64,000 bases of DNA. Source: an uncultured Candidatus Saccharibacteria bacterium (GTDB lineage Bacteria; Patescibacteriota; Saccharimonadia; Saccharimonadales; AWTP1-31). Below the pieces are notes generated by a model. That model was not told the DNA's origin. It ran no database searches and was given only the letters and a program-made list of their open reading frames with translations. A program made the position numbers and the translations under genes. Shown here in pieces: positions 2,572 to 54,015 of this stretch (its first letter is position 1; the number at the start of each line of letters is the position of its first letter). The stretch lies in contig CAYPDT010000001.1 of the NCBI GenBank assembly GCA_964409615.1, positions 371,880 through 435,879 of the forward strand. Direction: 5' to 3'.

Positions 2572-2799
2572 TTATTCTCCTTCTTCAAAACTTATAAATT
2601 CTTTAATTAGGCCACCGAGCAGAAGCTGATATGTTGCGTATTCTGCAGGATTTCTCATCAGCATATCTATCCATTCCTGGGCGGTATCTTCTGCCGGCAA
2701 GCCCCTATTAGCTTCTCTGAGCGCTTCGAGACGACTAAGAGTAGACAGCATTTCATCGACCGACATTTCCATACCTGGAATTGGTTCTATAGGTGACAT
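2572..2799 (-). CDS. small hypothetical protein co-transcribed with dnaK
   Basis: 75-aa ORF lying between the tandem CIRCE operators and dnaK. Its last codons (GAA GGA GAA TAA) form the dnaK SD, and its stop is 1 nt from the dnaK ATG. No family recognised. Confidence 0.35.
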
Positions 2800-2964: not shown

Positions 2965-4404
2965 CTACACCGGATCTGTAGGTGGCTTGGTTGGGGAGAT
3001 GACCTGACCACCCATAAGTCCGCTATTATCATCAGAGCTGACCGTACCTGGCTTAACAACTGAGCCACTACTATGGGCTTGTTTGTCGGCACCGACTTTC
3101 TTCTCGATAAGATCAAGTGTGTCGCTGGCTTTGACGCTTTCTTTGCCAGTCTTTGGCGCTTCTACATTTGGCGCCTCTGAGCCGCTAATTACTTTAGGCA
3201 TGAGTAGCGGTGAGTTGGCTATAATGTCGGCTTTAGGGCCACTGTTCTGCAAGCCGTTTACCACTACGGTGTTGTGTGATGGACCTTTTGGTCGAAGAGG
3301 TCGATTCTTGAACCAGCGAATTATGAGAGCGATGAACACTGCACCAAGCAGTACGGCCGCTGCAATTATCCCATAGGTCATGAGCGTTGGGCCTTTTTTG
3401 AGCTTCAGCTCAAAACTCTGTACGCTCGGCTGTGAAGCACTTCCAGCAGTAACGTTAACTTCTTTGGTAGCTGCGCCAAGAACACCTTTGGCTTGGACCT
3501 TATATTTACCCGGTTTGATTCCGGTAAAGCTTGCAATACCAGTGGCGTCGGTTACAGCAGTCTGTTTGTTTAGCGTCACCGTTACCCCAGCTACGGGCTT
3601 ACCGTTTTCGTCAACAATCTTAATAGCGACTGGGCCATTGAGCGTAAAGCCACCACCAGAATCTGTTGGGTTCTGTGAAGCTTCGGGCGTTCCGGCATTC
3701 TGCTGAGCATCGTTTCCGGATGAACTCGAATTATTAGAGGAGCTGCCTGAGCCATTGCCCGAACTTGAGCTGCTTCCAGATGGGGTACCGGAGTTATTGC
3801 TGCTATTGTTTGTGGGTTTAGTTGGCGTGGTAGGTGTTGTAGGAGTCGTAGGAGGATTAGGAGTGGTTGGAGGTGCCGGAGTCGCAAAATTGAACGTTGC
3901 ACCGCTCGGACTGTTGTTCCAGAGGTTAGCGCTGTCGCTACTTCGGAGGATAGCTGAACTATTGGCAAAGCTTACGTCTCCACTACCAGAACCGGCAAGT
4001 GTCTTGAAGGTGACCGTAGCAACTTGTTGCCGACCCGTTAATGAACCGCCGAGCTTAGCACAAGCAATACTAAACAGACCGGTGCCTGGCGTAACCTTAC
4101 AGAACTCACCTGCGAAAGCGCCAGAGCTATAGCTAGAGCTTTGATACTGTAACTGAGCTGGATTATAGCTGAGGTCTGCCTGAACACTTGTCATCGATTC
4201 TCCGCCACTATCTTCGAAGATAGTAACACTGAAGGTGGAGTTAACATTCTGAGTACCGTTTGCGGGGCTTAACGAAAGAGCCGCATTACCTGCTGCACTA
4301 GAATGATGTACAAAGAATGTTAATCCCGACACGGCAATAACAATCGCAAGATTCTTTAATCTGTTAACAGAGACTCGTTTTGTTCTTTTTTGCTTTGCCA
4401 CCAC
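2965..4404 (-). CDS. membrane-anchored cohesin-domain protein (cohesin, PT/S-rich linker, CarboxypepD_reg-like Ig domain, TM helix, cytoplasmic tail)
   Basis: Signal anchor, then a cohesin-like module (ALSLSPANGTQNVNSTFSVTIFEDSGGESMTSVQADLSYNPAQLQY...VATVTFKTLAGSGSGDVSF). This is followed by a PPTTPNPPTTPTTPTTPTKP and Ser-rich linker, then VTVTLNKQTAVTDATGIASFTGIKPGKYKV. The TM helix is IIAAAVLLGAVFIALII. The GTG start overlaps the upstream stop by 1 nt. Confidence 0.7.
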   Translation of the reverse strand: MVAKQKRTKRVSVNRLKNLAIVIAVSGLTFFVHHSSAAGNAALSLSPANGTQNVNSTFSVTIFEDSGGESMTSVQADLSYNPAQLQYQSSSYSSGAFAGEFCKVTPGTGLFSIACAKLGGSLTGRQQVATVTFKTLAGSGSGDVSFANSSAILRSSDSANLWNNSPSGATFNFATPAPPTTPNPPTTPTTPTTPTKPTNNSSNNSGTPSGSSSSSGNGSGSSSNNSSSSGNDAQQNAGTPEASQNPTDSGGGFTLNGPVAIKIVDENGKPVAGVTVTLNKQTAVTDATGIASFTGIKPGKYKVQAKGVLGAATKEVNVTAGSASQPSVQSFELKLKKGPTLMTYGIIAAAVLLGAVFIALIIRWFKNRPLRPKGPSHNTVVVNGLQNSGPKADIIANSPLLMPKVISGSEAPNVEAPKTGKESVKASDTLDLIEKKVGADKQAHSSGSVVKPGTVSSDDNSGLMGGQVISPTKPPTDPV

Positions 4405-5999
4405 TATTTACCCCAGCCATTTGCTAATATTTGTAAGTCGAAAATGTTCACAACACCGTCACCTGTCAAATCACCTTGTGTTCGGGTACGTCCGCTCTGT
4501 CCGTAATTGTAAGCTAAAGTGTTAAGGTCGATAATGTCCACCCGGTTATCACCGTTGATATCACCGGACTTTGGTGTGGCAACGGTATTCTTGACGGTCA
4601 CAGTAGCAACGGCAGTCTGCTTTTGATTGCCTGCTCCATCTATAGCAGTAGCAGAAATCGTATGACTACCATCACCCACCTTGGTAGTGTCCCAGGTGTA
4701 GGAAAATGGTGAGCTTGTATCGGTCGCAACGAGTTGTGAGTCGATATAAAACTGCACGCGCGCCAGCCCACTACCACCGGTGTCGCTCGCAGTAGCAGTT
4801 AGGTCAATATTGCCTGAAACTGTAACGCCAGTGGCAGGTGCGGTCAGAGTAACAGTTGGTAGTGTTGTGTCTGGACTACTCACCGTGAATGGTAGCGCCA
4901 GCGAATTATTATTCTCATCTGTCTCAGTTACCGCGCTTGTGCTGTCAGCAGTCGCAGTTACTGTGTGACTACCGCCAGTAGCTGCCCACGCAGTAGTAAG
5001 TGTTACTGCCCGCGAGCCCCCGGCTGCCAACGAAGTTGCGCTACTAACAGTCCCGATTACAGTATTGTCTACCTTGAAGCTGATGGTGCCTGGCGCACCG
5101 GCAACGGTACCTTGGTTCTTCACGGTAGCCGTAAAGGTTACAGCATTAGTGGCATTTATTGCCGAAGGCGTCCATGTAATGCCGTTGATTACAAAATCCG
5201 GTTTACCATTATTAACCGCAAGAATTACTGTTGTAGATGAGGCACTATTGTTAGAAGGGTCGAATGCCTTAGCCACGACACTATGTACACCATCGGTAGC
5301 GGTGGTCGTGTCCCAGCTGTAGCTAAATGGTGCGCCCGTATCTGTTGTTTTAAGCACTCCATCTATCCAGAATTCGACTTTACTGACTGTTCCGCTATCA
5401 TCGCTAGCCGTAGCGTTGATAGTAACCGTTCCACTTGTCTGTGTTCCGGTACCAGGAGATGTTATTGAGACTGTTGGAGGTGTGGTGTCTGGTGGGTTAG
5501 CACAATCATCGCCATTACCAGCTGGTGCAGGAGTACACGTGCTACCGCTAGTTACAAGAGTAAACAACACTCGATCAAGCAAAACACCATCGCTCGTGCC
5601 GAACATCTTTAGCGTATGCGTACCCTGAGTAAGAGCTACGTTAATCTTGCTACCGCCTGATTGATAATCGACCCAAGTCCAGGTATTGGCCGTTAGCGAC
5701 CCATTGGCACCAACGGTATAGCAGGTGCCGTCAATCTCGAGCATATAGTTATTATTGGTGCTGTTTGGAATCTGGATACGACTCCAAGCCCGGTAGGTTC
5801 CGGTTGCTGGAATGGAAACGTTATTACTAAACGTAACACTTCCGAAGTCTGACGGAGGCTGGCAAGCTGCTGAAGCTCGAGAAGTACGAAACAGTACTGC
5901 AGCACTCAATACGAGTGCAACTGCTATCAAGCTTGGCATCCATTTTTTGGATAGAACGCGCATAACACTATAGTAACGCATAAATCGCTTATGGTACAT
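4404..5999 (-). CDS. secreted multidomain protein with C-terminal dockerin (CBM-like, Ig-like, CARDB, Ig-like, dockerin)
   Basis: Signal peptide ...RTSRASA. Two Ig-like modules are present (VSKVEFWIDG...FSYSWDTT and ARVQFYIDS...FSYTWDTT). A CARDB-like segment ends in ...ETDENNNS. The terminal duplicated Ca-binding dockerin is GDINGDNRVDIIDLNTL...GDLTGDGVVNIFDLQILANGWGK. The start may be M13 (5963). Confidence 0.75.
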   Translation of the reverse strand: MYHKRFMRYYSVMRVLSKKWMPSLIAVALVLSAAVLFRTSRASAACQPPSDFGSVTFSNNVSIPATGTYRAWSRIQIPNSTNNNYMLEIDGTCYTVGANGSLTANTWTWVDYQSGGSKINVALTQGTHTLKMFGTSDGVLLDRVLFTLVTSGSTCTPAPAGNGDDCANPPDTTPPTVSITSPGTGTQTSGTVTINATASDDSGTVSKVEFWIDGVLKTTDTGAPFSYSWDTTTATDGVHSVVAKAFDPSNNSASSTTVILAVNNGKPDFVINGITWTPSAINATNAVTFTATVKNQGTVAGAPGTISFKVDNTVIGTVSSATSLAAGGSRAVTLTTAWAATGGSHTVTATADSTSAVTETDENNNSLALPFTVSSPDTTLPTVTLTAPATGVTVSGNIDLTATASDTGGSGLARVQFYIDSQLVATDTSSPFSYTWDTTKVGDGSHTISATAIDGAGNQKQTAVATVTVKNTVATPKSGDINGDNRVDIIDLNTLAYNYGQSGRTRTQGDLTGDGVVNIFDLQILANGWGK

Positions 6000-6046: not shown

Positions 6047-7483
6047 ATGAAAAAACTCAATGGTCGAACCAAAACTAACACCCCTACACACCACACTGGT
6101 TTGGCTCGATATTTTCGGCGTTTAGCCAGATCAAATCGAGCCCGACCACTTATTATTGTTCTTTCTTTTGTACTAGTTGGCACTATTATCCTGATTGCGA
6201 CCAAAGCAGCTACTCCAAATGGCTCATTAGAATCTGAGAGTGGAACACGTTCCACAAATACAAGTATCGGATATGATAGCAAGGCATCCAACGGTATGTT
6301 TATACGGTTTGGCGCCACCGGCGATGGCAACCAATCACGACGATTCTTTGCGGACGATGCTTCATGGAACAAGCCAGTTTCGGCTTTTGGGGCTGCAACC
6401 GACAATCGCCTAACCCAGTACGCAGACCGTTTCTGGAACTATGCCGGCCTGCCAGCAGAACCAGGAGATACTAATGTTCACTTCAGAGACTATAGCGTAC
6501 CTATATATGATGTTAGCGAAGCAAACACTACAGTAAGAATCTTCCAGGCTATTTGGGCACAGAATCAGCAATCGTTTAGTACAGCTGGCGGACAAATTGG
6601 CGACACTGTACCCTGGAATACTAGTTGGAAACCGGGAACCGGGAACGACCGCATTATGCACATCGTCAACTATGATACTGGTTATAATTATGGCTTTTGG
6701 GTAGTTGACGAACCAAAAATTGCCTGCAACGACCGTAACATATTTGGCATTGCCCTCTTTGATGGCCCGAACACCAAGGCTGGATACGAACCAGATAATC
6801 CAAACCACCTGTGCATGGCAGCATATGGTCAATACACTGGACTCTACACCGTTAAAGATGGCACAACACACAATGATCGCGGGATGGGCATAGACAAGTT
6901 AGCGCTTGTAACTCGAGCTAACGAAGTTAAATCAGGTGCTATCCGCCATGCTCTTGAGCTAACAATCACCTCAACCATGTTTGGCTCGCCAGAGTGCTCC
7001 CCAGCAAACAGTGCTTTTGTTAGCGGTGCTGGCGTAGATTGCGGATTTTACTTGCCACCTTCCACGCGCGTCGAATTTTCTGGCAATGAAAATGATCGTA
7101 TAACCAATCGATGTAGTGTGCCGACCCAAGTAAACAGTACCGGAAGGTCAAAGACTATACCCGAAGGAATTCGTATCGCACTCAATATTAGCGATGGAGA
7201 TATTCAAGCTTGGTTAAATCAACGCGGCTTCACTGGCGCCAAAAGAGAAACTGCACGCATCTTTGCGGTAGCACTTCGTGACTACGGAGCAATAGTTGGT
7301 GAGACGGGCTGCTTTGGTATCGGTATCGAAACCGACGGACTCATGAACCCGACAACTGCAAACACCTGGGCAAGCCTAGGTATCACCGATATCCCAGGCG
7401 ACAAAAATCCACATGGCGACCTACTCGATGGGCTATTCACTCGACAACGCATCTACGTAGTTAATCCACCTCCCGCACCATAG
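6047..7483 (+). CDS. secreted hypothetical protein
   Basis: 478-aa ORF with an N-terminal TM/signal anchor (IIVLSFVLVGTIILIA). No confidently recognised domain. Confidence 0.6.
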   Translation: MKKLNGRTKTNTPTHHTGLARYFRRLARSNRARPLIIVLSFVLVGTIILIATKAATPNGSLESESGTRSTNTSIGYDSKASNGMFIRFGATGDGNQSRRFFADDASWNKPVSAFGAATDNRLTQYADRFWNYAGLPAEPGDTNVHFRDYSVPIYDVSEANTTVRIFQAIWAQNQQSFSTAGGQIGDTVPWNTSWKPGTGNDRIMHIVNYDTGYNYGFWVVDEPKIACNDRNIFGIALFDGPNTKAGYEPDNPNHLCMAAYGQYTGLYTVKDGTTHNDRGMGIDKLALVTRANEVKSGAIRHALELTITSTMFGSPECSPANSAFVSGAGVDCGFYLPPSTRVEFSGNENDRITNRCSVPTQVNSTGRSKTIPEGIRIALNISDGDIQAWLNQRGFTGAKRETARIFAVALRDYGAIVGETGCFGIGIETDGLMNPTTANTWASLGITDIPGDKNPHGDLLDGLFTRQRIYVVNPPPAP

Positions 7484-9016: not shown

Positions 9017-9043
9017 TTAGCACTCACTTGCTTAAAGTGCCAA
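9017..9043. promoter_or_regulatory. degenerate CIRCE operator upstream of hrcA
   Basis: TTAGCACTC-ACTTGCTTA-AAGTGCCAA. The left arm is perfect and the right arm matches 7/9. It lies 10 nt upstream of the hrcA start. Confidence 0.55.
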
Positions 9044-11185: not shown

Positions 11186-14100
11186 CTATGAGGTAGTGGT
11201 CGGAGCAATTATTGGCATTGCTAGTAAGATGTTTGGCTCACGCTCAGCAGGAAGGGTTATGGTTACTGTAGTGCCAGCACCAAGTTTGCTTCGGATGGAT
11301 ATGGTTCCGCCGAGCTTATCGGTAATTACCTTGGTAGTGTACAAGCCTAGGCCAATACCCTCGTAGTTGTACTGCATCGATTCTGTGCCACGCGTAAATG
11401 GCTTGAGTAAGCTTGGAAGTTTCTGTTCGGAAATGCCTACACCGGTGTCGCTTACAGATAGGACTAACTTGTTAAGTCTCTTGAAGAGTAAGACCTCTAC
11501 ATTACCGCCAACTTTACTAAATTTGGCAGCGTTACCGAGTACGGAATCGATTATCTGCCTCATTTCATCGGCCTGAATTCGCATGACAATACCTGGATTA
11601 ATGCGAGCGTCGAAGGTAATCTTTTTATCGCTATTTTCGGTATTCAACTGGGCAACAGCTTTTTGAGCATAGGTTGTCACATCGAAGAGAGGTGCTTGAT
11701 CGGTAAACTTCGAGAACTTTTCGATATTTGTTAGGCCTTTATTGATACCGCCGAGCATATTGAGACCGTTGAAGAACAGTTTTGCTTCTGGCAGCTTCTT
11801 GAGTGATTCGCTCGCAATCTCGAGTGTTTCGTAATGCTCTTTTATCACCTTAAGAGCCTCAGGGATGAAGGTGCCGCGCTTCTTATAGAGTTCTGCCTCG
11901 AGAGCCAATTGCTTTTTGGTAATCTCTTTGGTCTCTTCGAGTGAATTACGGTAACGATATGCCAGGCCGACCAAGCCGACACCCAGAGCGTATAGGCTAA
12001 GCTCAACAAAGATGCGGAATGGCGACTTGTTAAATACGTCTGCATAGATGAAGAGTGCGTTGGCAAGAGCTAACAAGCTTAGCGCCACAACTGCAGGCAC
12101 CCAGACAGCCTTGGCCTTGAATGGACTTGACTGCTTTGGCTCAACTAATCGTTCTTCGCCACTGGTTTGTGCGTTGGATACTTGGTTAGCAATAAGTAAT
12201 GCAGCGGCAGCATCGGCAAAGCGCTTGATTTTGGTCTGCAAACTTTCTGCCTTAGCAGCATTAATTTTCTTGAGCGAGGTCAATAATTCGATTGCTCCGC
12301 CCATAATTGCAACAGGAGTGTTCAAGTAGTGTGTGGTTATAGCCAGGTAATCATCAATTGCTTCTTTGGTATTGGCGATTCGTGAGATGCTACGGTGATA
12401 GACGCTCAGCTCACGGTATTGGCGGAGTGCCTGCCATGAATAGAGGGCAGCCAGCATTAGAATGAGCAGAATCAATGAATACGGCACACTACGGGCGATG
12501 AATACTGGCACACTCGCCAGAATAGCCTTCAAGCCTTTAACCTGTTCGGGGCCGCCACTTATATTAAGTTTTTTGGCAATATTGCGTGTTGCGTTACGGA
12601 GGATTTCTGGTGAATTCTCAGGGGTAATTGGGGCCGTTGTAGTTGTAGAGCCACCATCGGTTGGTTTGGTTGGGCCTGTCGGCGTACCGTCGTCTGTTGG
12701 GACCTCTGTCTCTACGCCAGCAACAAACTTTGGATAATCACCTTTACGTACTACCCAGACATTGCCAAAGTTCCAACTATCCATAGGGGAATTTGTCTTG
12801 TTAGCGATGAAGTAGTTAGGTTGACTATTATTATCATTAACGTAGTCGCAGGCCGTCTGCGTGCCTAGTAACTGGTCAACCTGACCAAACACCTGCGCGA
12901 CAGTTGGTAAGTTTTCTGGGTGGTCAGATTGTCCAAAGTCAAACTTAGCTTCTAGTATTTGTGATTCGTGGTCGCGTAGTGCTGTCTTGAGTGGCTGCAT
13001 GTCTCCATTTTCAGAAATTTGGACTACTGGCCAGTCCTTACCAGTCGTGTCCTTCACGGTAGAGTCAAGTACGAAGTTTTTAGCAACATCGTATATTCGC
13101 TTGTTAGGGCCGTTACAATTTGCAACGCTTACTCTTGATTTGTCGAGGTAGACATTAGATACGTTATACATTTTTGCTACATCAGCATCACTCGTTGACT
13201 TGCCTAGCAGGAACGCATTAACAAAATGAAGTGGTGAGATAAACACGCCAACCGTACCGCCCGTTAATGTCTCGCTATTAAGTGTCATTTTAGATGCAGA
13301 GAACGAGTTAGTGATTGTCTGAGGATTATTGGTAAAGTATGCCGATGTAAACTGGCCAGAGTCAACATCATCAAATACGTCACGGGCAATCTTTTCCATA
13401 CTTGGCTGTGGTGTGGCGATATTAATACCTATCAAGCCACCAGCTACACTCGGTATTTTGCCGACCGACACTACTAAGCCATTGCTTGTGCTGGTGCGGT
13501 CTTCGACTGGCTGATCAGCTTTGACGGTAACATCACCTGCAGCATATGAATCACTAATCCGTGCGCCCGCCGACATGTTAAGCCCAATCAAACCTCCCGC
13601 CGTTGAAGGTAATCGCACTGGATCAATTGGCCGCGCTTCACCACGGAAGTTAATTTGTGGGTCTGCGAGACCCGGAATTGATGTTACATTACCGGTGGAG
13701 TAAGTATTAGTTATTTGTACAGGACCTATGGCAAGTTGTGCTTTGTCGAATAATGTAGCGGCTGCGATAACGCCTTGTATTTGCTGCTGGTTTGCCGTGC
13801 CGGAATCAGTTGGCCCTAGCACCCCTAAGCCGAATGCCGTACCACCACCCGCCGTAATTACATCTTGGGCAAACCCAGCTTGGCCGACTAAGCCGCCCAC
13901 GATGGCACCGTCGACATTACCTTCGGCATAGGATTTATTGATGGCGGTCTTCATATCTGCGGAACCGACTAAGCCACCTGCTAGATTGCCCTTTACGTTG
14001 CCTGTAGCATGAGTATTGTTGATTACTATACCACTGGTTGTAGCATCTGGAAATGGGTTGCTAGTAAGCCCGGTTAGTAGCAAGCCTACAAATTTAGGAA

Positions 14101-17100
14101 TATCCACACCCAGTGTTGCCCCAACCAAACCACCAGATACCGCTGCACCAACTTTAAAATTGTACTGACTGAATATTTCTAGTGGATTAGCAATATCACC
14201 TTCTGCACCAATCTTATCAGGCAGACCACCCGTTACACTACCAGTGGCATAGGAGTTCTTTATATCTGCTTGCCCTATCATTAAGCCAGATAATCCACCA
14301 CCGATAGCCAAGTTACCACCACCGCGATCTTTCTGGACCTTAACATTACCAGTGGCATAGGAGTTATTAATAACGAGTCCGTGGGTTGATTCACCAAGCA
14401 CCGCTTGTGGGTCGTTATCCCAGTCCCGCTCCAAGTAGGTAGCTAGCGAGTATGGCACATCCATTCCTATACTAAGGCCTGTCAGACCACCAGCAAATGA
14501 AGCGCCCCCCACAAACTTATTTGTCAGGTGGTGGTTAATATTGCCGGTGCTATATGTATTCTGGATAGTGCCTGAGCCAAGGGTGATTCCTACTACGCCG
14601 CCACTTACGCCAACAAAACCTTGCTTAGAATCAACACTGATACTACCGGTACTGAAGCTGTTATTTATCATGAAGTTGCCGTCACGGTCATCAGCAATGT
14701 TGACCATAATACCGGCTAGACCACCGTTGACACCACCGTACATGTTGATAGCGGTTGATTGTTCTGGAGGATCATTATTGACGGCCGTTATGGAGCCAGT
14801 ATTAGAGCTGTTTGTAATGCGTGAGACCAATAGCAGACCACCTATTCCACCAGTAAAGCCACCATACACACCCCAGTTTGATGGAGTAGCCGAGCAATTA
14901 CGGATAGGTGAATTAGAAACAGTCGAATCCACCTGCACACCAATGCCGATACCAACAATTCCGCCCAAGGCAGCAATGCGTAGGCCAGAAAGCGACTCGC
15001 AGGCACTCACTAAGCCTGAGCTCTGCGAATTACGTATAATAACTGTCTGCGTGCTACCCATATACTGCACCGCCTGAGATATAATGCGTCGCTGTTCGAG
15101 ATCGCCAGCACCACTTTGCCCCGCTGCCACGCCCCTTATAAAGCCGTTTGCAATTGATGTGTTGAGGGCTAGGCCAATCAGGCCGCCCGAAACACTACCT
15201 TGCACCTCGCTCGATGAAGTACTGTTTTGAATTGTGAGCGGTATTGGCTGTCCAAAAGCGTTGCCAATTGACGAAACTGCCAGACCAATAACACCGCCTG
15301 ATAGGTGTCCGATAATCAAACCATCGGAATGTAGACCATCTACAACCATTGGCTCGCCAACTTTTGCATTTCCAATGTCGATAATTTCCGCCGTAGAGCG
15401 TACTGGCAAAAGCATTCCGATTACGCCGCCTGCCAAGCCACCGCGTATTGCAGTATTGACAGTCCGGATGTTGCTATATTGGCCCTCGCCTATGGCAAAA
15501 CCGATGACACCACCTGTCGCTACTTTTGCCATATTACCGTAGGTGTCGGTCACAAAGTTTGGCGAAATTGAGGCCAGCACATCACGTGCTGATACAAACG
15601 CGCCACCTGCCCCATAGTTAAGCTCATTAAGATTAGTAGGTACGCGATCTGGTAAGTCTACTTGGCTAAAATCTAAATCCGGGCCATCTGGCAGACCGTT
15701 TTGATCAGAGTCTACCGCCTCATCCAATGCATAATTTGCAACCACAGCGCTATTGGCAATAGTTACATTTGTGACGACTGCTCGATAGGTAAAGGCAAAC
15801 AGCCCAACTGCTCGGAAGTCTTGGGATGGCCCGGTCTGCAGTTCGGCAATAATACTGAGGTTATTTATCTTAAAGCCATTACCGTTAAAAGTACCCATGA
15901 ATGGTGTAGTGTCATTAGCCTGTTGCTGGAAGCCAATCGGTTGGAAGTCAAAGTTTGAACAATCAATGTCTGCTGTCATTGTATAAACACCCATTGGGTC
16001 ATCATTGATATCTTGTAGCTGCTGGCAAGTAGAGACGTTATATAGCTGTTGGGCAGGCGTTGTGAACGCAACAGGTTCACTCCATGGTCCTGGCCCCGCA
16101 ACATTAGCACCACGGAGTCGTACCTGATAGCTCGTCTGGGGATTAAGCTCCGCCATGCTAGCACCAAATCGAGATTCATTTTCTTCGTCTGGGGGAATTG
16201 AAGTTGCATATTTGGTATAAAGTGCCTGCCATTCTTGTGTGCCAGTTTGACGATATTCGGCGCCATAAGAAGTTGCGCTCTCAAGGGCATCCCAACTAAT
16301 GGCAGCGCCTTTTGGTTCTGGGTTAACCTGAATATTTTCGGGGGCGGTTTCTGGCATGCCCGTTGCAAACTCGAAGATATCACTGCTCAAACCGGGATCA
16401 AATGCCCCAGGCTGTAGCCGCGAATGGTAGCGGGCACGAACCTTAAATTCATACTTACCAGGGATACTTAAACCACTAATGGTGACTGTATCCGCGTCAC
16501 CTGGTTCCCTCACTGTCCAATCAGCGCTATTTCCCTGGCTCTTATCGCGGTAGTATACGAGGTAGTCTGTTATCTGTTCCGTCCTTGATCCATCACCTGA
16601 TGGTTTTACCCAAGACACAATAAAATCTCCACCATCACGTTGCACTGCAATATTTGTGGGTGCATTCGTTCTTGACGGCCATGCAAGCATCGTTGGGTAT
16701 GAATCACCTAATAGCCAGTCAATAGATGCATCCCAATCATCAAAGAAGCCCGTCTGGTTGGCACTCGTAAAGAAATCGGGCTCAGAATTATCACTATTAA
16801 CAACCTGACACTGCGTAATCGACTCCCCCAAACCAAAGTTCTCTCCACACTGGTTTTCAGGAGTAATGTTCGTTACTTGCGTAGCACTCTGGTCAAACGC
16901 GTTGCTCCCAAAGTCTATATATCCAGGAAGTTGCGAGTTGCCGTTTTTAGCATACGAAGTATATAGACCTCGTGCCCGTTCCATATTGGCAGCCCGAACC
17001 TCGCCCGCGGCAAAGTTATCGGCCAGCATAATGTGTTCGGTAACATCTTGACTTTCATATATGCTCCCAATAAGCCCTGCAGCAGAAACTTCTGACGCAG

Positions 17101-18031
17101 TATTCAAGCAGCTAACATCGGCAATGCTGTAGGATGTTCGTATCTGATACTGATTATTCGCATTAATGGCCTGGACGCTTCCGACTAATCCGGCGCACGC
17201 TGCCTGGCTCACCGAAGATGCATCACCGGCAAATCCTACCGTACCACCGGTATACGAATCGTGGATGGCTACGAGCTTGTTCTGCACATCGTAATCGTTC
17301 ATAAATCCAACGAGCCCGCCTATAGTAATATTGCGACCTGTTGGCCCTGTACCTAACGCGGTAACTTTACCTGAAGCAGAGCTATGATCAATAACAGACT
17401 TTAGTGAGCCAACCAATCCGCCGGCTCGTCCATACGGACCGTCGCCGTTGTTCCATGTAGCAGTCGTTTGGACGGTAAGTTTACTATGGACGTTCTCAAT
17501 TATGTAACCTTGAAATTCTCCAACCAAGGCACCCACGTCTCCACCACCGGTGATGTCTACACGATCAGCGTTGACCGAATTCTTGTCGAGTCGCACATCA
17601 GCCAGGCGCACACCACCATTAGCTATGTACGAAAAAAGTCCAACCGGGTTGAGGTCTTGAGGTCGATTGATATATAAGTCCCGGATGATATAGCCACGCC
17701 CATCAAATGAACCCTGAAAATTAGAAATTGGCTCAAACCCTGCACCATTGTTCCAGCTGCTGGTTTCGCTACAGTCGATGTCACTGACCAGAACATAGTT
17801 CGCCCATTTTGTGAGGTTCATTTCTTGCAGCTGACTGCAGTTAGTTATTGCGAATGGGTAATCGGTTGAGCCGTCCCCTGAGCCTGTAAAGGCTCGAGCC
17901 AGCGACGGTGAAACGACACCCACATAATACGCAAAGATGCTCACAGCAATGATTAAAATTCCCGATAGGCCAAGAATCCGAATACGCCGAGTTGGTTTTT
18001 TGATGAGTTGCAGTAATACTTCTTTTTTCAT
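11186..18031 (-). CDS. giant membrane-anchored surface protein (GLUG-type beta-solenoid repeats plus 2 FN3) fused to a histidine-kinase core
   Basis: 2,281 aa with an N-terminal signal anchor. There are dozens of repeats such as INNSYATGNV...GGLSG and two FN3 modules (...EFKVRARY; ...YQVRLRGANVAGPGPWSEPV). After a PT stalk and a TM helix comes the H-box ITTHYLNTPVAIMGGAIELL. Two more TM helices follow, then HATPase_c (GNAAKF, DTGVGI, KPFTRG, GIGLGLY). Confidence 0.85.
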   Translation of the reverse strand: MKKEVLLQLIKKPTRRIRILGLSGILIIAVSIFAYYVGVVSPSLARAFTGSGDGSTDYPFAITNCSQLQEMNLTKWANYVLVSDIDCSETSSWNNGAGFEPISNFQGSFDGRGYIIRDLYINRPQDLNPVGLFSYIANGGVRLADVRLDKNSVNADRVDITGGGDVGALVGEFQGYIIENVHSKLTVQTTATWNNGDGPYGRAGGLVGSLKSVIDHSSASGKVTALGTGPTGRNITIGGLVGFMNDYDVQNKLVAIHDSYTGGTVGFAGDASSVSQAACAGLVGSVQAINANNQYQIRTSYSIADVSCLNTASEVSAAGLIGSIYESQDVTEHIMLADNFAAGEVRAANMERARGLYTSYAKNGNSQLPGYIDFGSNAFDQSATQVTNITPENQCGENFGLGESITQCQVVNSDNSEPDFFTSANQTGFFDDWDASIDWLLGDSYPTMLAWPSRTNAPTNIAVQRDGGDFIVSWVKPSGDGSRTEQITDYLVYYRDKSQGNSADWTVREPGDADTVTISGLSIPGKYEFKVRARYHSRLQPGAFDPGLSSDIFEFATGMPETAPENIQVNPEPKGAAISWDALESATSYGAEYRQTGTQEWQALYTKYATSIPPDEENESRFGASMAELNPQTSYQVRLRGANVAGPGPWSEPVAFTTPAQQLYNVSTCQQLQDINDDPMGVYTMTADIDCSNFDFQPIGFQQQANDTTPFMGTFNGNGFKINNLSIIAELQTGPSQDFRAVGLFAFTYRAVVTNVTIANSAVVANYALDEAVDSDQNGLPDGPDLDFSQVDLPDRVPTNLNELNYGAGGAFVSARDVLASISPNFVTDTYGNMAKVATGGVIGFAIGEGQYSNIRTVNTAIRGGLAGGVIGMLLPVRSTAEIIDIGNAKVGEPMVVDGLHSDGLIIGHLSGGVIGLAVSSIGNAFGQPIPLTIQNSTSSSEVQGSVSGGLIGLALNTSIANGFIRGVAAGQSGAGDLEQRRIISQAVQYMGSTQTVIIRNSQSSGLVSACESLSGLRIAALGGIVGIGIGVQVDSTVSNSPIRNCSATPSNWGVYGGFTGGIGGLLLVSRITNSSNTGSITAVNNDPPEQSTAINMYGGVNGGLAGIMVNIADDRDGNFMINNSFSTGSISVDSKQGFVGVSGGVVGITLGSGTIQNTYSTGNINHHLTNKFVGGASFAGGLTGLSIGMDVPYSLATYLERDWDNDPQAVLGESTHGLVINNSYATGNVKVQKDRGGGNLAIGGGLSGLMIGQADIKNSYATGSVTGGLPDKIGAEGDIANPLEIFSQYNFKVGAAVSGGLVGATLGVDIPKFVGLLLTGLTSNPFPDATTSGIVINNTHATGNVKGNLAGGLVGSADMKTAINKSYAEGNVDGAIVGGLVGQAGFAQDVITAGGGTAFGLGVLGPTDSGTANQQQIQGVIAAATLFDKAQLAIGPVQITNTYSTGNVTSIPGLADPQINFRGEARPIDPVRLPSTAGGLIGLNMSAGARISDSYAAGDVTVKADQPVEDRTSTSNGLVVSVGKIPSVAGGLIGINIATPQPSMEKIARDVFDDVDSGQFTSAYFTNNPQTITNSFSASKMTLNSETLTGGTVGVFISPLHFVNAFLLGKSTSDADVAKMYNVSNVYLDKSRVSVANCNGPNKRIYDVAKNFVLDSTVKDTTGKDWPVVQISENGDMQPLKTALRDHESQILEAKFDFGQSDHPENLPTVAQVFGQVDQLLGTQTACDYVNDNNSQPNYFIANKTNSPMDSWNFGNVWVVRKGDYPKFVAGVETEVPTDDGTPTGPTKPTDGGSTTTTAPITPENSPEILRNATRNIAKKLNISGGPEQVKGLKAILASVPVFIARSVPYSLILLILMLAALYSWQALRQYRELSVYHRSISRIANTKEAIDDYLAITTHYLNTPVAIMGGAIELLTSLKKINAAKAESLQTKIKRFADAAAALLIANQVSNAQTSGEERLVEPKQSSPFKAKAVWVPAVVALSLLALANALFIYADVFNKSPFRIFVELSLYALGVGLVGLAYRYRNSLEETKEITKKQLALEAELYKKRGTFIPEALKVIKEHYETLEIASESLKKLPEAKLFFNGLNMLGGINKGLTNIEKFSKFTDQAPLFDVTTYAQKAVAQLNTENSDKKITFDARINPGIVMRIQADEMRQIIDSVLGNAAKFSKVGGNVEVLLFKRLNKLVLSVSDTGVGISEQKLPSLLKPFTRGTESMQYNYEGIGLGLYTTKVITDKLGGTISIRSKLGAGTTVTITLPAEREPNILLAMPIIAPTTTS

Positions 18032-47104: not shown

Positions 47105-47776
47105 TTAATCGTCGAGGTGGTAAATGAGGCTTTCCTCATTGTTCTTCGTAGTATTAACGTCCCTGCTTACCGTGTGCATTATTAAAGCTCCGTCTTCGAG
47201 TGGTCGCAGTAGAGGCTCTATGTCATCTCTGGTCTCGCTTGATGGCCTCAGCCAAGCATCTTCATCCTCGGGGTGTAAAATGACTGGCATTCTGTTATGA
47301 ATTTTAGCCATCTCCTTATTTGGTTCGGTGGTGATTATTGAAAAGGTAAGTAACTCCTTGCCTTCCGAATCTTTCCAGGAACTAAAGACCCCTGCAAAGC
47401 TAAACATTTTCTTGTCTTTCGGTTGGATGAAGTATGGTTGCTTCATCTTCTCGTCAACCGCTTTCCACTCGTAGAAGCCACTGGAGGGTATCAGGCAGCG
47501 TTTATGTAGCGCCGATGACTTCCACATAGGTTTATCGAATACTGACTCACTACGTGCATTAATAAGCTTATATCCAATGTTGATGTCCTTAGCCCATACG
47601 GGTACCAGTCCCCATTTCATAAGTAGAACTTTGTTCTTACCTCCATCGTCCACTATGACTGGCATTATCTGCCCCGGCGCAACATTGTAGTTAGCGTGAA
47701 TCTGTCCCGCCTTGGCGCTCAGATTGAAGCGTTTAGTCAGCTCAGCTGTTCCGAAGAGTGTATAGCGACCGCACAT
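47105..47776 (-). CDS. SOS-response-associated peptidase (SRAP/YedK) abasic-site processing protein
   Basis: N-terminal MCGRY catalytic Cys2, with the family pattern throughout. Confidence 0.9.
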   Translation of the reverse strand: MCGRYTLFGTAELTKRFNLSAKAGQIHANYNVAPGQIMPVIVDDGGKNKVLLMKWGLVPVWAKDINIGYKLINARSESVFDKPMWKSSALHKRCLIPSSGFYEWKAVDEKMKQPYFIQPKDKKMFSFAGVFSSWKDSEGKELLTFSIITTEPNKEMAKIHNRMPVILHPEDEDAWLRPSSETRDDIEPLLRPLEDGALIMHTVSRDVNTTKNNEESLIYHLDD

Positions 47777-47801
47777 ATTTACATTTTACAGGAGATACCA
47801 A

Positions 47802-48068
47802 ATGAAACAGAAGATTAATGAAGAAGTAAGCGTCATCATGTACTACAGCTCAAAGGTAAAGCATATCCAGCCTTACCTTCTGCACTGGCAGAGCAACGAC
47901 TACCCCTTGGGTAAAGTCAGCTACTACCACAGCTATATGGAGGGTCGTGACCGCCAACACATCTTTGAGCTAACTGACAAAGCACAGAGCATGTGGTTCA
48001 GGCTCAGACTTGATTCTAAAAACCTACACTGGACATTGGAGGCTGTACACGATGGAAATGCCTATTAA
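47802..48068 (+). CDS. hypothetical protein upstream of the Y-family polymerase
   Basis: 88-aa ORF with GGAG upstream. Overlaps the polymerase start by 17 nt. Confidence 0.45.
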   Translation: MKQKINEEVSVIMYYSSKVKHIQPYLLHWQSNDYPLGKVSYYHSYMEGRDRQHIFELTDKAQSMWFRLRLDSKNLHWTLEAVHDGNAY

Positions 48069-49287
48069 CAATGAAGAACCGTTGGTGATGCATATCGACT
48101 TGAACAGTTGCTATGCAATCATCGAACAACAAGCTAACCCGCTTATCCGATACAAGCCAGTTGGAGTAGCGGCTTATGATTCGCCTGGTGGGTTCATTAT
48201 CGCTTCGTCATATGAAGCACGGAAACACGGCATAAAGTTAATGCGGATACGTGAGGCACGGCAGATACTGCGAGATATTATCATCCTGACGCCAGACCCA
48301 GAGAAGTACTTCGATGCCCACCGGCGTTTCAGGAAGGTTCTAGAGCGTTATACCAGCGAAGTTACCCCGAAGTCTATTGATGAGTTTGTGGTTGATTTTA
48401 GAGGCTCTAGAGCGGTCCATGATGGTAAAAGCTTAGTCGATATTGGTAAACAAATTAAACGCGACATCAAGGAGGAACTGGGAGAGTACGTAACGGTGAA
48501 TATCGGCATAGCCCCCAACCGGTTCTTGGCCAAAATAGCAGCTGGTATGGATAAGCCAGACGGGCTTGATGTTCTACGTGGCGATGAAGCACACAATGCC
48601 TACGGCCAGATGAGTTTAACTGACCTACCAGGTATTAACTTCCGATACAAAGCACGGCTCAATGTAGCTGGTATTTTCACACCACTCGACTTTGTTGAGG
48701 CCCCCATGCACAAATTAAAGAAAGAGGTGTTCAAGAGCGTAGTCGGGTATTACTGGTACCTGCGACTGCGTGGTTACGAGGTGGATTCAGCTAACTTTGC
48801 CACCCGAAGCTTTGGTAATGACTACTCAGTGGGGGATAAGACAAGTGACCCACAAAAGGTCAATCGACTGATTATGAAGCTTTGTGAAAAGACCGGGCGA
48901 AGACTACGGAAACACGACTACCAGGGACGTGGCATCTCTATGTGGCTCAGTTTTGAGAACGGCCAGTGGTGGGGCAAAAGTAAACGCACGGGTAATTTAC
49001 TATATTCCACCCAAGATATTTACCTTGCCTGTATGCGCTTATTAAGAGGAGTGGACTACCCTGCCCGAGTGACTCATATCAACCTCTCAGTGTTCAATGT
49101 TGTTAAAGCAAACCCCGTCCAGCTGGGTCTGTTCGATGATAGTAGACTAGATACCAGGTCGCTAGCCCGAGCCTCTGACATGATTAATGACCGTTATGGT
49201 GAATACACGCTGACACCAGCAACTATGGCAAATATGGGAGATATTATTATTAAAAGAGTACCTTTTGGCAGTGTGCGTGATATTTAA
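48052..49287 (+). CDS. Y-family DNA polymerase (DinB/UmuC-like)
   Basis: MHIDLNSCYAIIEQQ (catalytic Asp), SIDEFVVD, and a little-finger region. I place the start at MEMPINN (48052); the track ORF starts at 48010. Confidence 0.88.
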   Translation: MEMPINNEEPLVMHIDLNSCYAIIEQQANPLIRYKPVGVAAYDSPGGFIIASSYEARKHGIKLMRIREARQILRDIIILTPDPEKYFDAHRRFRKVLERYTSEVTPKSIDEFVVDFRGSRAVHDGKSLVDIGKQIKRDIKEELGEYVTVNIGIAPNRFLAKIAAGMDKPDGLDVLRGDEAHNAYGQMSLTDLPGINFRYKARLNVAGIFTPLDFVEAPMHKLKKEVFKSVVGYYWYLRLRGYEVDSANFATRSFGNDYSVGDKTSDPQKVNRLIMKLCEKTGRRLRKHDYQGRGISMWLSFENGQWWGKSKRTGNLLYSTQDIYLACMRLLRGVDYPARVTHINLSVFNVVKANPVQLGLFDDSRLDTRSLARASDMINDRYGEYTLTPATMANMGDIIIKRVPFGSVRDI

Positions 49288-51461: not shown

Positions 51462-53045
51462 GTGTTTCATCTTAAAAAAGCCTTTTACGGCTTGTCTGCT
51501 GTTCTCTTTGCAGCAATAATTAGTTTCCCTGTTATATTGCCAACTAAAGCCTCGGCTGCAATTCCATCAAACCTATCCCGTGTGCCTAAGATTACCTTTA
51601 CATTCGATGACGGGCTACTCAGTGCTCGCTCGTTAGCCGCTCAAACACTGCAGACCTATAACTACACTGGGGTAAACTATGTTGCCTCTAGTTGTATCGG
51701 CATGACCACCGCACCAAACACCTGCCAAGCAAACACAGACGGTGTGTACATGACATGGGCACAGGTAAATGAACTGCAAGATACTTACGGCTGGGAAATT
51801 GGTTCACACACCAGCACTCATCCATATCTAGCAACTAGTGGCGACGAACAGCCAAATCCTCTTACCAACGCGCAGGTAATCAACGAACTAACCACAAGTC
51901 GGACAGCAATCGCTACCAATACCGGTATTGCGCCGACGGCCTTTGCTTCACCATATGGCGATTACCAACCAAACGGCAACCCTGTATTAGCAGAGGTAGC
52001 AAAGCTCTATACCTCACATCGTGGTTTTGCTGATACCGGTTACAATGTTAGCCCGTGGGAAACTACCGCAACATTGCCAGCAGATAATTACCCACTTAAC
52101 AACTACCTCATTCGCACCCAGCAAGTACAAGCTGGTGTGTCGGTAGCCACCGTTCAAAGTTACATTGATAAAGCTATCGCCGACAATGCCTGGTTAGTAT
52201 TAACCTTCCACGACATCACTGCTGGTGCAGCAAGCACTAACCCAGATGACTACCAGTATAGCAACGCCGACCTTGCTACAATTGCTGCATACGCTCGTTC
52301 AAAGAATGTACTTGGCACCAACGTCAGCAATGGCCTAGCGCTCATGAGTGCCACTGGCACTAACCTGTTGCCAAACAGCAGCTTCGATAGCGCCATCGGC
52401 ACCTTTGATGCAGCTAACCCAAGCACTACCACCTGGACAACCGACAATCCTAGTGTCATCAAACAAGACACCGGGAACCACGGCAACTACCCAAGCAGCA
52501 CCAATTCGATAAGTGTTACCGACAGCTCAACTGCAACACATTTGTTTTCACCGATTGTATCAGTTACCGCCGGCCAGACATATATTTGTAATATGTTTAT
52601 CAATGTTACGACGGTAACTAGTGGGGAAGTGGCCTTCTACATCGATGAATATGACGCCACTGGCACTTACCTAACAACTCAGTATAAGAAGTCAATCTTC
52701 CCTAGCAATAACCCCCTAGTTAAGAACTGGAACTTTAGCTACGTCCCAACCACTGGCGCTGCAAAAGCCCGCTTGCAGGTCTACTTTGCCGCTAACTCAG
52801 GCGTGGCAGCTTATATCGATAATGCGCAATTATTCGCTGCTGACGATAGTATCGTCACTCCACCGCAACCCACATACACTGCAGGCGACCTAAACCACGA
52901 CGGTAAAGTTGATGCCCTTGACCTCAGCACTCTATTAACCAACTGGGGTCAGCCCAACAAGACCGCCGCAGATGGCAATATTAACGGCGACACCGCCGTT
53001 GACGCGCTTGATTTATCAACCTTACTAGCAAACTGGAGCAAATAA
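51462..53045 (+). CDS. secreted polysaccharide deacetylase (CE4/NodB), CBM-like domain and C-terminal dockerin
   Basis: Signal peptide ...TKASA. NodB motifs are TFTFDDG and GSHTSTHP. The CBM4_9-like stretch is NLLPNSSFDS...W. The terminal dockerin is GDLNHDGKVDALDLSTLLTNWG...GNINGDTAVDALDLSTLLANWSK. GTG start with an AAGGAG RBS. Confidence 0.8.
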   Translation: MFHLKKAFYGLSAVLFAAIISFPVILPTKASAAIPSNLSRVPKITFTFDDGLLSARSLAAQTLQTYNYTGVNYVASSCIGMTTAPNTCQANTDGVYMTWAQVNELQDTYGWEIGSHTSTHPYLATSGDEQPNPLTNAQVINELTTSRTAIATNTGIAPTAFASPYGDYQPNGNPVLAEVAKLYTSHRGFADTGYNVSPWETTATLPADNYPLNNYLIRTQQVQAGVSVATVQSYIDKAIADNAWLVLTFHDITAGAASTNPDDYQYSNADLATIAAYARSKNVLGTNVSNGLALMSATGTNLLPNSSFDSAIGTFDAANPSTTTWTTDNPSVIKQDTGNHGNYPSSTNSISVTDSSTATHLFSPIVSVTAGQTYICNMFINVTTVTSGEVAFYIDEYDATGTYLTTQYKKSIFPSNNPLVKNWNFSYVPTTGAAKARLQVYFAANSGVAAYIDNAQLFAADDSIVTPPQPTYTAGDLNHDGKVDALDLSTLLTNWGQPNKTAADGNINGDTAVDALDLSTLLANWSK

Positions 53046-53046
53046 T

Positions 53047-54015
53047 ATGAAGATCGGAACAATTTTAGCCAGCGTATCTGCTTTTGCAGTCATAGCCCTT
53101 AACAACACACCTGTTCAAGCCGCTGCATCAAGCCTGTACATTACGCCAGCAAGTGGCAGTATTACGCAGGGCAGTAGCCTCACCGTTAGCATCGTCGAGA
53201 ACGGCGGTAACGTCAACGTTGTAACTGCTAACCTCAACTACGACGCTAGTAAACTTCAGTGTAATGGTGTGGGTGGCGGTAGCTTTGCGCAAACAATCTC
53301 GGCTAGCTGTGGTGGTGGCGCAGTAACCGTCAGTCGTTACGTCACTCCTGGCCAGCCTGGTCTTAATGGAGCCCAAACTGTAGCCACCGTAAGCTTTACT
53401 GCGCTTGCTAGTAGTGGCACAACCAGCATTACGGTCGGTGCATCACAAGTTGCCAGCGCAGGAGTAAACACGCTGGCAAGTACAGCTGGTGGTAGTTACA
53501 CTCTTACCGCTCCTGCAACTACTCCAAGTAATCCAACCACCCCAAGTGGGAACAACAATGGCTCTTCGCCACAGGGAAGCGCGGTAACGTACGGTCCCAA
53601 AGCATCTCCAGCAAACAACACGGCAACGCATAGCACAACCAATTCCGGAACGGCGACCAGCAGTGCAGCTACAACCGCAAAGCCATCTGATGTTCTTTCG
53701 GAGCAACAATCAGACAAAAGCGACAAAGATGCGGACTCAAACAAGTCAGATAATAAAGCTCAAACTAGTGCTAAAAAAGATTCATCAAATACTGCGCGGA
53801 ATTTAGCAATTCTACTAGGCTTAATGGCAGTTGTTGGTGGTATTATCGCTAGCCAGCGCTACCGTGATGCGCAGGCAGAAAAAGCAGCCGTAGCTGCAGC
53901 AGCAGTTACTGCCAAGAAGGCAGCAACGAAGAAAGCAAAGGCGACAGCAAAGACCACAAAGAAAGTCGTCAAAAAACCTGCTGCAAAGAAAAAGCCAGCA
54001 GCTCGCAAAAAATAA
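53047..54015 (+). CDS. membrane-anchored cohesin-domain protein with Lys/Ala-rich cytoplasmic tail
   Basis: Signal peptide, then a cohesin-like module (SSLYITPASGSITQGSSLTVSIVENGGNVNVVTANLNYDASKLQ...VATVSFTALASSGTTSI). An S/T-rich linker follows, then TM helix LAILLGLMAVVGGIIA. The tail reads AAKKAATKKAKATAKTTKKVVKKPAAKKKPAARKK. The start is 1 nt after the upstream stop. Confidence 0.7.
   Translation: MKIGTILASVSAFAVIALNNTPVQAAASSLYITPASGSITQGSSLTVSIVENGGNVNVVTANLNYDASKLQCNGVGGGSFAQTISASCGGGAVTVSRYVTPGQPGLNGAQTVATVSFTALASSGTTSITVGASQVASAGVNTLASTAGGSYTLTAPATTPSNPTTPSGNNNGSSPQGSAVTYGPKASPANNTATHSTTNSGTATSSAATTAKPSDVLSEQQSDKSDKDADSNKSDNKAQTSAKKDSSNTARNLAILLGLMAVVGGIIASQRYRDAQAEKAAVAAAAVTAKKAATKKAKATAKTTKKVVKKPAAKKKPAARKK

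Follow-up and report, generated by a model that had tools for sequence, protein, structure and literature searches.

A dockerin-cohesin gene pair of a Candidatus Saccharibacteria bacterium, a probable non-cellulosomal module for surface display

Results

Organization of the gene pair

The window analysed here is a 64,000-nt stretch of contig CAYPDT010000001.1 (assembly GCA_964409615.1, positions 371,880 to 435,879) from an uncultured, tiny and probably host-dependent bacterium of the Candidatus Saccharibacteria, order Saccharimonadales. On its minus strand it carries two adjoining genes, one encoding a secreted protein of 531 amino acids (aa) that bears a dockerin (4404..5999), referred to below as the cargo, and the other a putative type I membrane protein of 479 aa with one cohesin (2965..4404), referred to as the anchor. 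The TAG stop codon of the cargo gene and the GTG start codon of the anchor gene have one G in common, as an earlier note on this DNA had stated, and the reverse complement of positions 4402..4406 does read TAGTG. The cargo open reading frame (ORF) was called identically on four independent contigs, and the overlapping anchor start was picked by gene callers on four independent contigs with identical proteins. A GGGG run is located 6 nt 5′ of the anchor GTG and, since a second in-frame GTG follows the first one at once, the start could also lie 3 nt later. Such an overlap of stop and start codons favours a coupled and roughly equal synthesis of the dockerin and the cohesin proteins.

The anchor protein

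The anchor begins with a predicted signal peptide (residues 1-37, 4294..4404), read from a basic KQKRTKR stretch, a hydrophobic core and a cleavage site between SSA and AG. The earlier note proposed that the first domain to follow is a cohesin, and this domain (residues 38-176, 3877..4293) was the hardest to recognise. In the full-length protein, Pfam gave no Cohesin match even at E<=1 and reported CarboxypepD_reg-type matches only, the NCBIfam scan did not detect a cohesin, and a single-sequence phmmer search of the domain against PDB returned nothing meaningful. Excised from the protein (residues 37-175), the domain reaches 26.4 bits against the Pfam Cohesin model (PF00963; cut-off 24.1 bits, E 8.7e-6), and all 44 aligned relatives of the domain match Cohesin as well, the best of them with E 2e-12. 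Two homologs of the same architecture, P0004 and P0006, pass the threshold with 33.1 and 31.9 bits, and the former is 45% identical to the window anchor across the cohesin domain. When a six-sequence family profile was compared with all PDB sequences, the best 15 matches were all cohesins, headed by the cohesin of Clostridium perfringens GH84C/NagJ (E ~5e-4 over profile positions 12-136). The structural model agrees with this identification. The AlphaFold2 (AF2) model built from the 44-sequence alignment is all-beta (pLDDT 95.6, pTM 0.88) and conforms to the cohesin fold, a nine-stranded beta-sandwich or jelly-roll, and in Foldseek searches against PDB ranks 1-25 were all occupied by cohesins (TM-score 0.61-0.82, best rmsd 2.1-2.5 Å). 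Many of these come from solved cohesin-dockerin complexes, and the 25 include Clostridium acetobutylicum CohA2, Archaeoglobus fulgidus 2xdh, C. cellulolyticum 1g1k and C. perfringens 2vo8/2jh2. A verdict of no cohesin, drawn from the full-length Pfam and NCBIfam scans, would thus be wrong, being ruled out by the excised-domain score, the family profile and the AF2/Foldseek comparison.

The long linker of low complexity may, we suspect, influence how Pfam scores the full-length anchor. Because the full-length scan misses what the excised domain reveals, and the same happens with the second anchor of the window described below, automated annotation may under-call cohesins in linker-rich proteins. 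The sources that name these anchor proteins label them as hypothetical proteins.

The remaining parts of the anchor follow the order given in the earlier note. The cohesin is succeeded by a low-complexity stalk rich in Pro, Thr, Ser, Gly and Asn (residues 177-258, 3631..3876) and by a membrane-proximal CarboxypepD_reg domain with a prealbumin-like immunoglobulin (Ig) fold (residues ~259-328, 3421..3630), which scores 39.6 bits against a cut-off of 32.3 in Pfam and is conserved in homologs P0002-P0008. According to a hydropathy scan, a single transmembrane helix is predicted at residues 344-365 (3310..3375), and the RWFKNRPLRPK that comes after it would conform to the positive-inside rule. The predicted cytoplasmic tail comprises 114 aa (residues 366-479, 2968..3309), close to the earlier estimate of about 110. 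Neither an SLH match in Pfam nor an LPXTG motif in the sequence was found in the anchor, which carries the predicted C-terminal helix instead, and the description of a one-cohesin scaffold tethered by such a helix rather than by SLH domains or sortase is therefore supported.

Near its C-terminus the tail holds a conserved motif, GGQVISPT (2989..3012). Its core, [VI][VI]xP within the last 25 residues, occurs in 48 of 90 anchor tails, compared with a mean of 3.7 and a maximum of 11 in shuffled sequences, and it may serve as a docking site for a cytoplasmic partner. A fuller form of the motif, G-x-[VI]-I-x-P, was noticed in the tails of transmembrane-anchored cohesin proteins among family members P0001-P0152.

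The cargo protein

The cargo also starts with a predicted signal peptide (residues 1-44, 5868..5999), read from its basic N-terminus, hydrophobic core and A-x-A site, with probable cleavage between ASA and A; in homologs the mature domain likewise begins at residue 45. The N-terminal domain (residues 45-171, 5487..5867) contains four conserved Cys and appears to be a beta-jelly-roll resembling CBM6/CBM35-type carbohydrate-binding modules (CBMs). The earlier note had called it CBM-like. The family model gives no support, with a Pfam CBM_6 score of 17.4 bits against a cut-off of 28.9, and a profile of the domain found weak CBM35 matches in PDB (E 0.1-0.16). At the level of the fold the name is reasonable, because the leading Foldseek matches of the AF2 model (pLDDT 87.5) are CBM35, CBM6 and CBM36 modules or enzymes containing them, at TM-scores of ~0.5 and E ~1e-3. 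In 88 of 120 listed homologs the domain is present, and a dockerin motif closes 81 of these 88.

Two Ig-like domains and a CARDB domain had been proposed for the middle of the protein, and all of them are present. The first Big_7 copy (residues ~175-243, 5271..5477) was delimited by internal alignment to the second one (residues 381-450, 4650..4859), and Pfam reports two Big_7 stretches (E 1.4e-42). CARDB lies between them (residues 266-367, 4899..5204) with E 1.5e-17 and 64.1 bits, well over its cut-off of 22.7. No catalytic domain was found in the cargo by the Pfam scan.

The last module, placed exactly at the C-terminus as previously noted, is a dockerin (residues 478-531, 4407..4568) with a Dockerin_1 score of 27.4 bits over residues 479-527 (gathering cut-off 22.9). 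It consists of two 22-residue repeats, DINGDNRVDIID and DLTGDGVVNIFD, and so holds the two tandem segments of about 22 residues that characterise Dockerin type I (PF00404), in which an EF-hand-like Ca2+ loop with D/N at set positions precedes a helix. In both repeats, the loop positions 1, 3, 5, 9 and 12 carry residues of the EF-hand type, namely D1 N3 D5 D9 D12 in the first loop and D1 T3 D5 N9 D12 in the second, where Thr at position 3 is less usual.

Locus 2, another dockerin-cohesin pair

A further pair of this kind is located on the plus strand of the window (locus 2, as opposed to locus 1 described above). Its cargo (51462..53045), of 527 aa, is a CE4 polysaccharide deacetylase that bears a dockerin at its C-terminus (Polysacc_deac_1 E 4.9e-15, Dockerin_1 27.8 bits in Pfam), and its anchor (53047..54015), which starts 1 nt after the TAA of the cargo, is a 322-aa protein with a predicted signal peptide, a cohesin (53116-53508), an S/T-rich linker, a putative transmembrane helix (53803-53856) and a Lys-rich tail. 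The cohesin was identified with hhalign against the cohesin profile A1 (probability 98.9%, E 3.7e-17), and once excised it scores 25.5 bits against Pfam Cohesin. An ortholog of the pair exists in one of the related loci, L012.

The dockerins of the two loci are 43% identical and differ in the residues of their helices, with II/IF..NT/QI in locus 1 and AL/AL..ST/ST in locus 2, and the L012 ortholog keeps the locus-2 pattern. These helix positions usually make the contacts with the cohesin, and the differences would fit interfaces specific to each pair. Since this second pair would likewise display its cargo, here a CE4 deacetylase, the two loci suggest a single docking system of general use in which each pair has its own interface.

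Family size and conservation

The anchor family is large, as an exhaustive search by profile over 1.84 billion cluster representatives retrieved 8,122 representatives at E<=1e-3, 2,439 of them at <=1e-10. Among the best 150 of the 8,122, roughly 105 are laid out like the window anchor, in that a signal peptide precedes a single cohesin or two and a transmembrane helix comes late in the sequence. A minority carry one or more cohesins together with a C-terminal dockerin, thereby resembling adaptor scaffoldins, and in some the number of cohesins rises to as many as 12 (e.g., the 12 cohesin stretches of the 3,228-aa family member P0009). A pattern scan restricted to one genome per GTDB species yielded 21 loci, of which 16 derive from genomes named Candidatus Saccharibacteria, Saccharimonadales or Patescibacteria and three from Paenibacillus, Bacilli and Lentimicrobiaceae.

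The earlier note had left the link between the two genes dependent on their conservation as neighbours, and a survey of related loci shows this conservation to be strong. Custom hidden Markov models (the cohesin profile A1 and four local dockerins) were run over six-frame ORFs, and an ORF with a dockerin only was found directly upstream of a cohesin ORF in 12 related loci (L005, L006, L011, L012, L013, L016, L018, L019, L020, L022, L024 and L025). The downstream frame opens between 54 nt before and 11 nt after the upstream stop, a range that narrows to 15 nt before and 11 nt after for single-cohesin pairs; by gene calls, cargo and anchor overlap by 1 nt in L005 and by 4 nt in L006. L010 shows the opposite order, a cohesin gene followed by a CBM-like/Big_7/dockerin gene, and the two are still adjacent. 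Of 18 loci of the Saccharibacteria type in reference genomes, 17 have a dockerin within the cohesin gene or in an adjoining one.

In the syntenic relatives, hrcA and dnaK are 91-94% identical to those of the window (L005, L006, L024) or 83-87% identical (L013), whereas identity is only ~45% for the cargo and 36-56% for the anchor. The pairs thus change much more quickly than the housekeeping genes beside them, as is typical of surface proteins and expected of those engaged in host interaction. Despite this divergence, L005, L006 and L024 all keep both a duplicated dockerin-like segment at the C-terminus of the cargo and the cohesin.

More elaborate arrangements occur as well. A three-tier string in L013 (4924-8639) consists of a cargo, a cohesin+dockerin adaptor and a cohesin anchor, and in L023 (5803-11349) one protein of 1,848 aa bears six cohesins as well as a dockerin, with another cohesin protein following it. 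In spite of such cellulosome-like hierarchies, no cellulase was found among the five dockerin cargos of other Saccharibacteria that were checked.

Genomic position and neighbouring genes

The locus-1 pair sits between hrcA-grpE and dnaK, as both the ORFs of the window and the gene tables of identical contigs confirm, and it occupies the same slot in L005, L006, L013 and L024. Three CIRCE operators, the inverted repeats recognised by HrcA, were located, with 0.02 expected by chance. Two form a tandem (2810-2836 and 2858-2884, the latter a perfect match) downstream of the pair and right in front of dnaK, and the third (9017-9043) precedes hrcA. An opposite-strand gene (6047-7483) stands between the pair and grpE. 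The positions of the operators and of this gene indicate that the pair is an insertion between two heat-shock transcription units and part of neither.

The product of the opposite-strand gene comprises 478 aa and has a membrane or signal segment at its N-terminus. The gene diverges from the pair, a mere 47 bp separating the starts. Next to the pair in L006 it is likewise present (40% identity), and in L013 it is conserved in part; its product has no match in Pfam, NCBIfam, PHROGs or PDB sequences. A small ORF of 64-75 aa (2572-2799, minus strand) lies between the CIRCE tandem and dnaK. Two other ORFs gave no matches either, one of 103 aa in Pfam, NCBIfam and PHROGs, and one of 180 aa in PHROGs.

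Elsewhere in the window, a giant protein of 2,281 aa (11186-18031, minus strand) has a signal anchor at its N-terminus, a very long extracellular region that is repetitive and rich in Gly and Ser and gives weak fn3 matches, transmembrane segments and, at its C-terminus, a histidine-kinase ATPase domain (HATPase_c in a precomputed table). For a genome of ~0.7 Mb, a sensor kinase of this size would be unusual. Judged by eye from the translations, the region 47105-49287 holds a 223-aa protein (MCGRY…) resembling SRAP/YedK-type abasic-site-processing proteins and, adjoining it, a 425-aa protein that looks like a DNA polymerase of the Y family.

Discussion

Little is understood of the means by which ultrasmall epibiotic Patescibacteria recognise their host cells and stay attached to them. 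Type IV pili are reported to be the only such means that has been genetically tested so far (PMC12206443). In this context, we consider it probable that the overlapping genes of locus 1 constitute a two-gene, non-cellulosomal cohesin-dockerin module by which a Candidatus Saccharibacteria bacterium displays a protein on its surface. According to the model we propose, both proteins would be exported via their Sec signal peptides, and the anchor would be held in the membrane by its single C-terminal helix with the cohesin facing outwards. The Ig-like domain and the stalk of roughly 80 Pro/Thr/Ser-rich residues would hold the cohesin off the cell and could span the wall. The cargo, having no anchor of its own, would dock by its C-terminal dockerin into the cohesin in a Ca2+-dependent manner. 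With the cargo plugged in, its CBM6/35-like, Big_7 and CARDB domains would come to be displayed at the cell surface, where they would most likely bind glycan on a substrate or on the host cell. We hypothesise that the pair could in this way contribute to host adhesion.

Several observations weigh against the proposed model. The cohesin escapes the full-length Pfam scan and, as an isolated domain, stands just 2.3 bits over the cut-off, which is a thin and context-dependent margin. The signal peptides and the membrane topology are predictions from sequence reading and the hydropathy scan. The resemblance of the CBM-like domain to CBM6/35/36 is weak (TM-score ~0.5, sub-threshold in Pfam), and its membership of any of these families is unproven. 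Furthermore, the dockerin is degenerate in the closest syntenic relatives. Precomputed Pfam annotation contains no Dockerin in the cargos of L005 (6334-8001), L024 (4205-5881) and L006 (4781-6376), and in L005 and L024 the first Ca2+ loop carries an insertion (GDTTKTGEAGYGIVNYTDL), although the duplicated helix pattern …DL..VLNNW… is kept in all three. Owing to this degeneration, Ca2+-dependent docking may lack conservation, or else the interface drifts fast. Finally, we infer the cohesin-dockerin binding itself from domain identity and synteny.

The last two points bear on the alternative that the dockerin and cohesin proteins are co-expressed without binding each other. The dockerin would then use another cohesin, for example that of the locus-2 anchor or one on another cell, or act as a Ca2+-stabilised terminal module, while the cohesin-like domain would bind some other ligand. 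Non-cellulosomal cohesins and dockerins are reportedly often found without obvious partners, the presence of two cohesins and two dockerins in the window makes cross-pairing possible, and the degenerate dockerins mentioned above hint at relaxed constraint. Moreover, the essential dockerin-domain protein SEML1_0315 of Southlakia epibionticum (Wang et al. 2023) is flanked by a hydrolase gene and tRNA-Glu and not by cohesin genes. On the other hand, the tight and often overlapping adjacency of dockerin and cohesin genes recurs across loci whose pairs are only 33-56% identical and holds even where the order is reversed, and the helix differences between the two dockerins of the window would fit pair-specific interfaces. 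We therefore regard this alternative as unlikely. A role in envelope stress, with the pair belonging to the HrcA/CIRCE heat-shock regulon, could be suggested by its conserved position between hrcA-grpE and dnaK and by the operators nearby. However, the CIRCE sites front dnaK and hrcA, leaving the pair outside both CIRCE-controlled transcripts, and related pairs reside in unrelated contexts (beside lepA in L010, and at locus 2 of the window). Heat-shock co-regulation was rejected from the site positions, and we give the idea hardly any credence.

A different explanation follows from Starr et al. (2018), who interpreted a comparable pair in a Saccharibacterium, Candidatus Teamsevenus rhizospherense, as a minimal two-subunit cellulosome that would attach the cell to cellulose and degrade it. 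Cohesins and dockerins are indeed the assembly modules of cellulosomes, the locus-1 cargo has a CBM6/35-like domain, and the name was given, in the part of that article concerned with the pair, to a dockerin/CE4/CBM22 protein and a "Type II cohesin" encoded 2 nt apart. However, dockerin-bearing cellulases or plant-cell-wall glycoside hydrolases were found neither as the locus-1 cargo, in which Pfam reports no catalytic domain, nor among its neighbours or the related cargos. The gene tables of contigs identical to the region (covering ~10 kb on one side and ~4-11 kb on the other) contain no glycoside-hydrolase Pfam families, which confirms within that range the remark of the earlier note that no cellulases are nearby. 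The cargos encoded beside related anchors are of the CBM/Ig type, CE4 deacetylases, a Sortilin/BNR-type propeller, fn3 or beta-helix proteins, and never a cellulase of the GH5/9/48 type. Instead of a multi-enzyme scaffoldin with several cohesins and a CBM3, the locus offers one cohesin and no CBM3, and its anchor employs neither SLH nor sortase attachment. A cellulosome at this locus is accordingly very improbable, and a surface-display device, which the earlier note had preferred, is the better supported of the two.

If the surface-display model is correct, this Saccharibacterium uses the plug-and-socket modules of the cellulosome, in the absence of cellulases, to mount glycan-binding and wall-modifying proteins on an anchor in the membrane. 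The locus would then correct the earlier line of reasoning from "cellulosome" to cellulose degradation. The transmembrane helix would represent a third mode of anchoring beside SLH modules and sortase, and a large set of small orthogonal cohesin-dockerin pairs could find practical use in synthetic biology. The display idea also lends itself to testing, since in the one Saccharibacterium that is genetically tractable a protein with a dockerin domain is essential (Wang et al. 2023).

It is conceivable, although we hold this as a tentative and rather doubtful extension, that cohesin-dockerin docking is a general modular system for building the surface of Saccharibacteria and perhaps of other Patescibacteria. 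Transmembrane-anchored cohesins with G-x-[VI]-I-x-P tails would receive interchangeable, fast-evolving cargos, either glycan-binding or wall-modifying, for host recognition and attachment. Adaptor and multi-cohesin scaffoldins would extend such assemblies into a "cellulosome-like" organelle of host interaction, which the tail motif could link to a cytoplasmic partner for localisation or signalling. The interest of the locus would rise if the system proved to be such a general host-attachment scaffold.

Comparison with known systems

In functional terms, the closest known systems are OlpA and OlpC of C. thermocellum and ScaE of Ruminococcus flavefaciens, in which one cohesin on a cell-bound protein captures an individual dockerin-bearing protein and keeps it at the cell surface, and structures of two of them (3ul4 Coh-OlpA and 2zf9 ScaE) are among the Foldseek matches of the anchor cohesin. 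Cellulosome anchors attach via SLH modules or via sortase/LPXTG, the two established mechanisms (2025 review, PMC12484212). While OlpA, OlpC and ScaE follow these modes, the window anchor has a C-terminal transmembrane helix and a predicted cytoplasmic tail of 114 aa. What they carry are plant-cell-wall enzymes or scaffoldins, whereas the locus-1 cargo is a non-catalytic CBM/Ig protein, and its gene overlaps that of the anchor.

By sequence, the cohesins of the C. perfringens GH84C NagJ and GH33 proteins are the closest (2w1n, 2jh2, 2o4e and 2ozn, E 5e-4 to 1e-3 over nearly the whole domain), and the structures 2vo8 and 2jh2 match the anchor cohesin model with TM-scores of ~0.8. They also provide an example of cohesin-dockerin modules outside cellulose degradation in a host-associated bacterium. 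However, the C. perfringens modules link secreted toxins and enzymes together, while the window presents a dedicated, putatively membrane-bound anchor and a non-enzymatic partner. The cohesin of A. fulgidus (2xdh, Foldseek rank 4, E 6e-8) demonstrates the fold in a non-cellulolytic organism and shows that cohesin/dockerin modules serve general protein-protein docking, although it differs from ours in domain of life and protein context.

Within the Saccharibacteria, Wang et al. (2023) found a dockerin-domain protein to be essential in S. epibionticum and speculated that it targets host glycans; the words "cohesin" and "dockerin" are absent from the portion of their supplements covered here. The nearest counterpart is the T. 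rhizospherense pair, described as a "simple, two-subunit cellulosome" (Starr et al. 2018, PMC6031116). The annotation table of that article gives gene 185 as a 476-aa protein with dockerin, CBM22 and CE4, and gene 186, which follows after 2 nt, as a 309-aa "Type II cohesin". The pair belongs to the same phylum and is a direct counterpart of locus 2 with its 527-aa CE4-dockerin protein and 322-aa anchor. By comparison, locus 1 has a different cargo (CBM6/35-like, Big_7 and CARDB domains and no CE4) and a longer anchor with an additional CarboxypepD_reg domain and tail. An adjacent pair with the dockerin gene first and a cohesin protein of ~300-480 aa second is shared by both loci of the window, the 12 related loci and T. 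rhizospherense genes 185/186. In the parts of PMC6031116 that treat the pair, the cellulolytic reading takes up one sentence, and anchoring, conservation and family size are not discussed. Within the literature collection that we searched, we found no description of the transmembrane-anchored cohesin architecture, of a pair of the locus-1 type, of the family size or of the tail motif. What was already known is a sister pair of the CE4 type, annotated in another Saccharibacterium and over-interpreted as a cellulosome (Starr et al. 2018). What is new here is the proposed form of cohesin-dockerin display, in which a transmembrane helix serves as the anchor and the cargo is non-cellulolytic, in an epibiotic lineage of the Patescibacteria.

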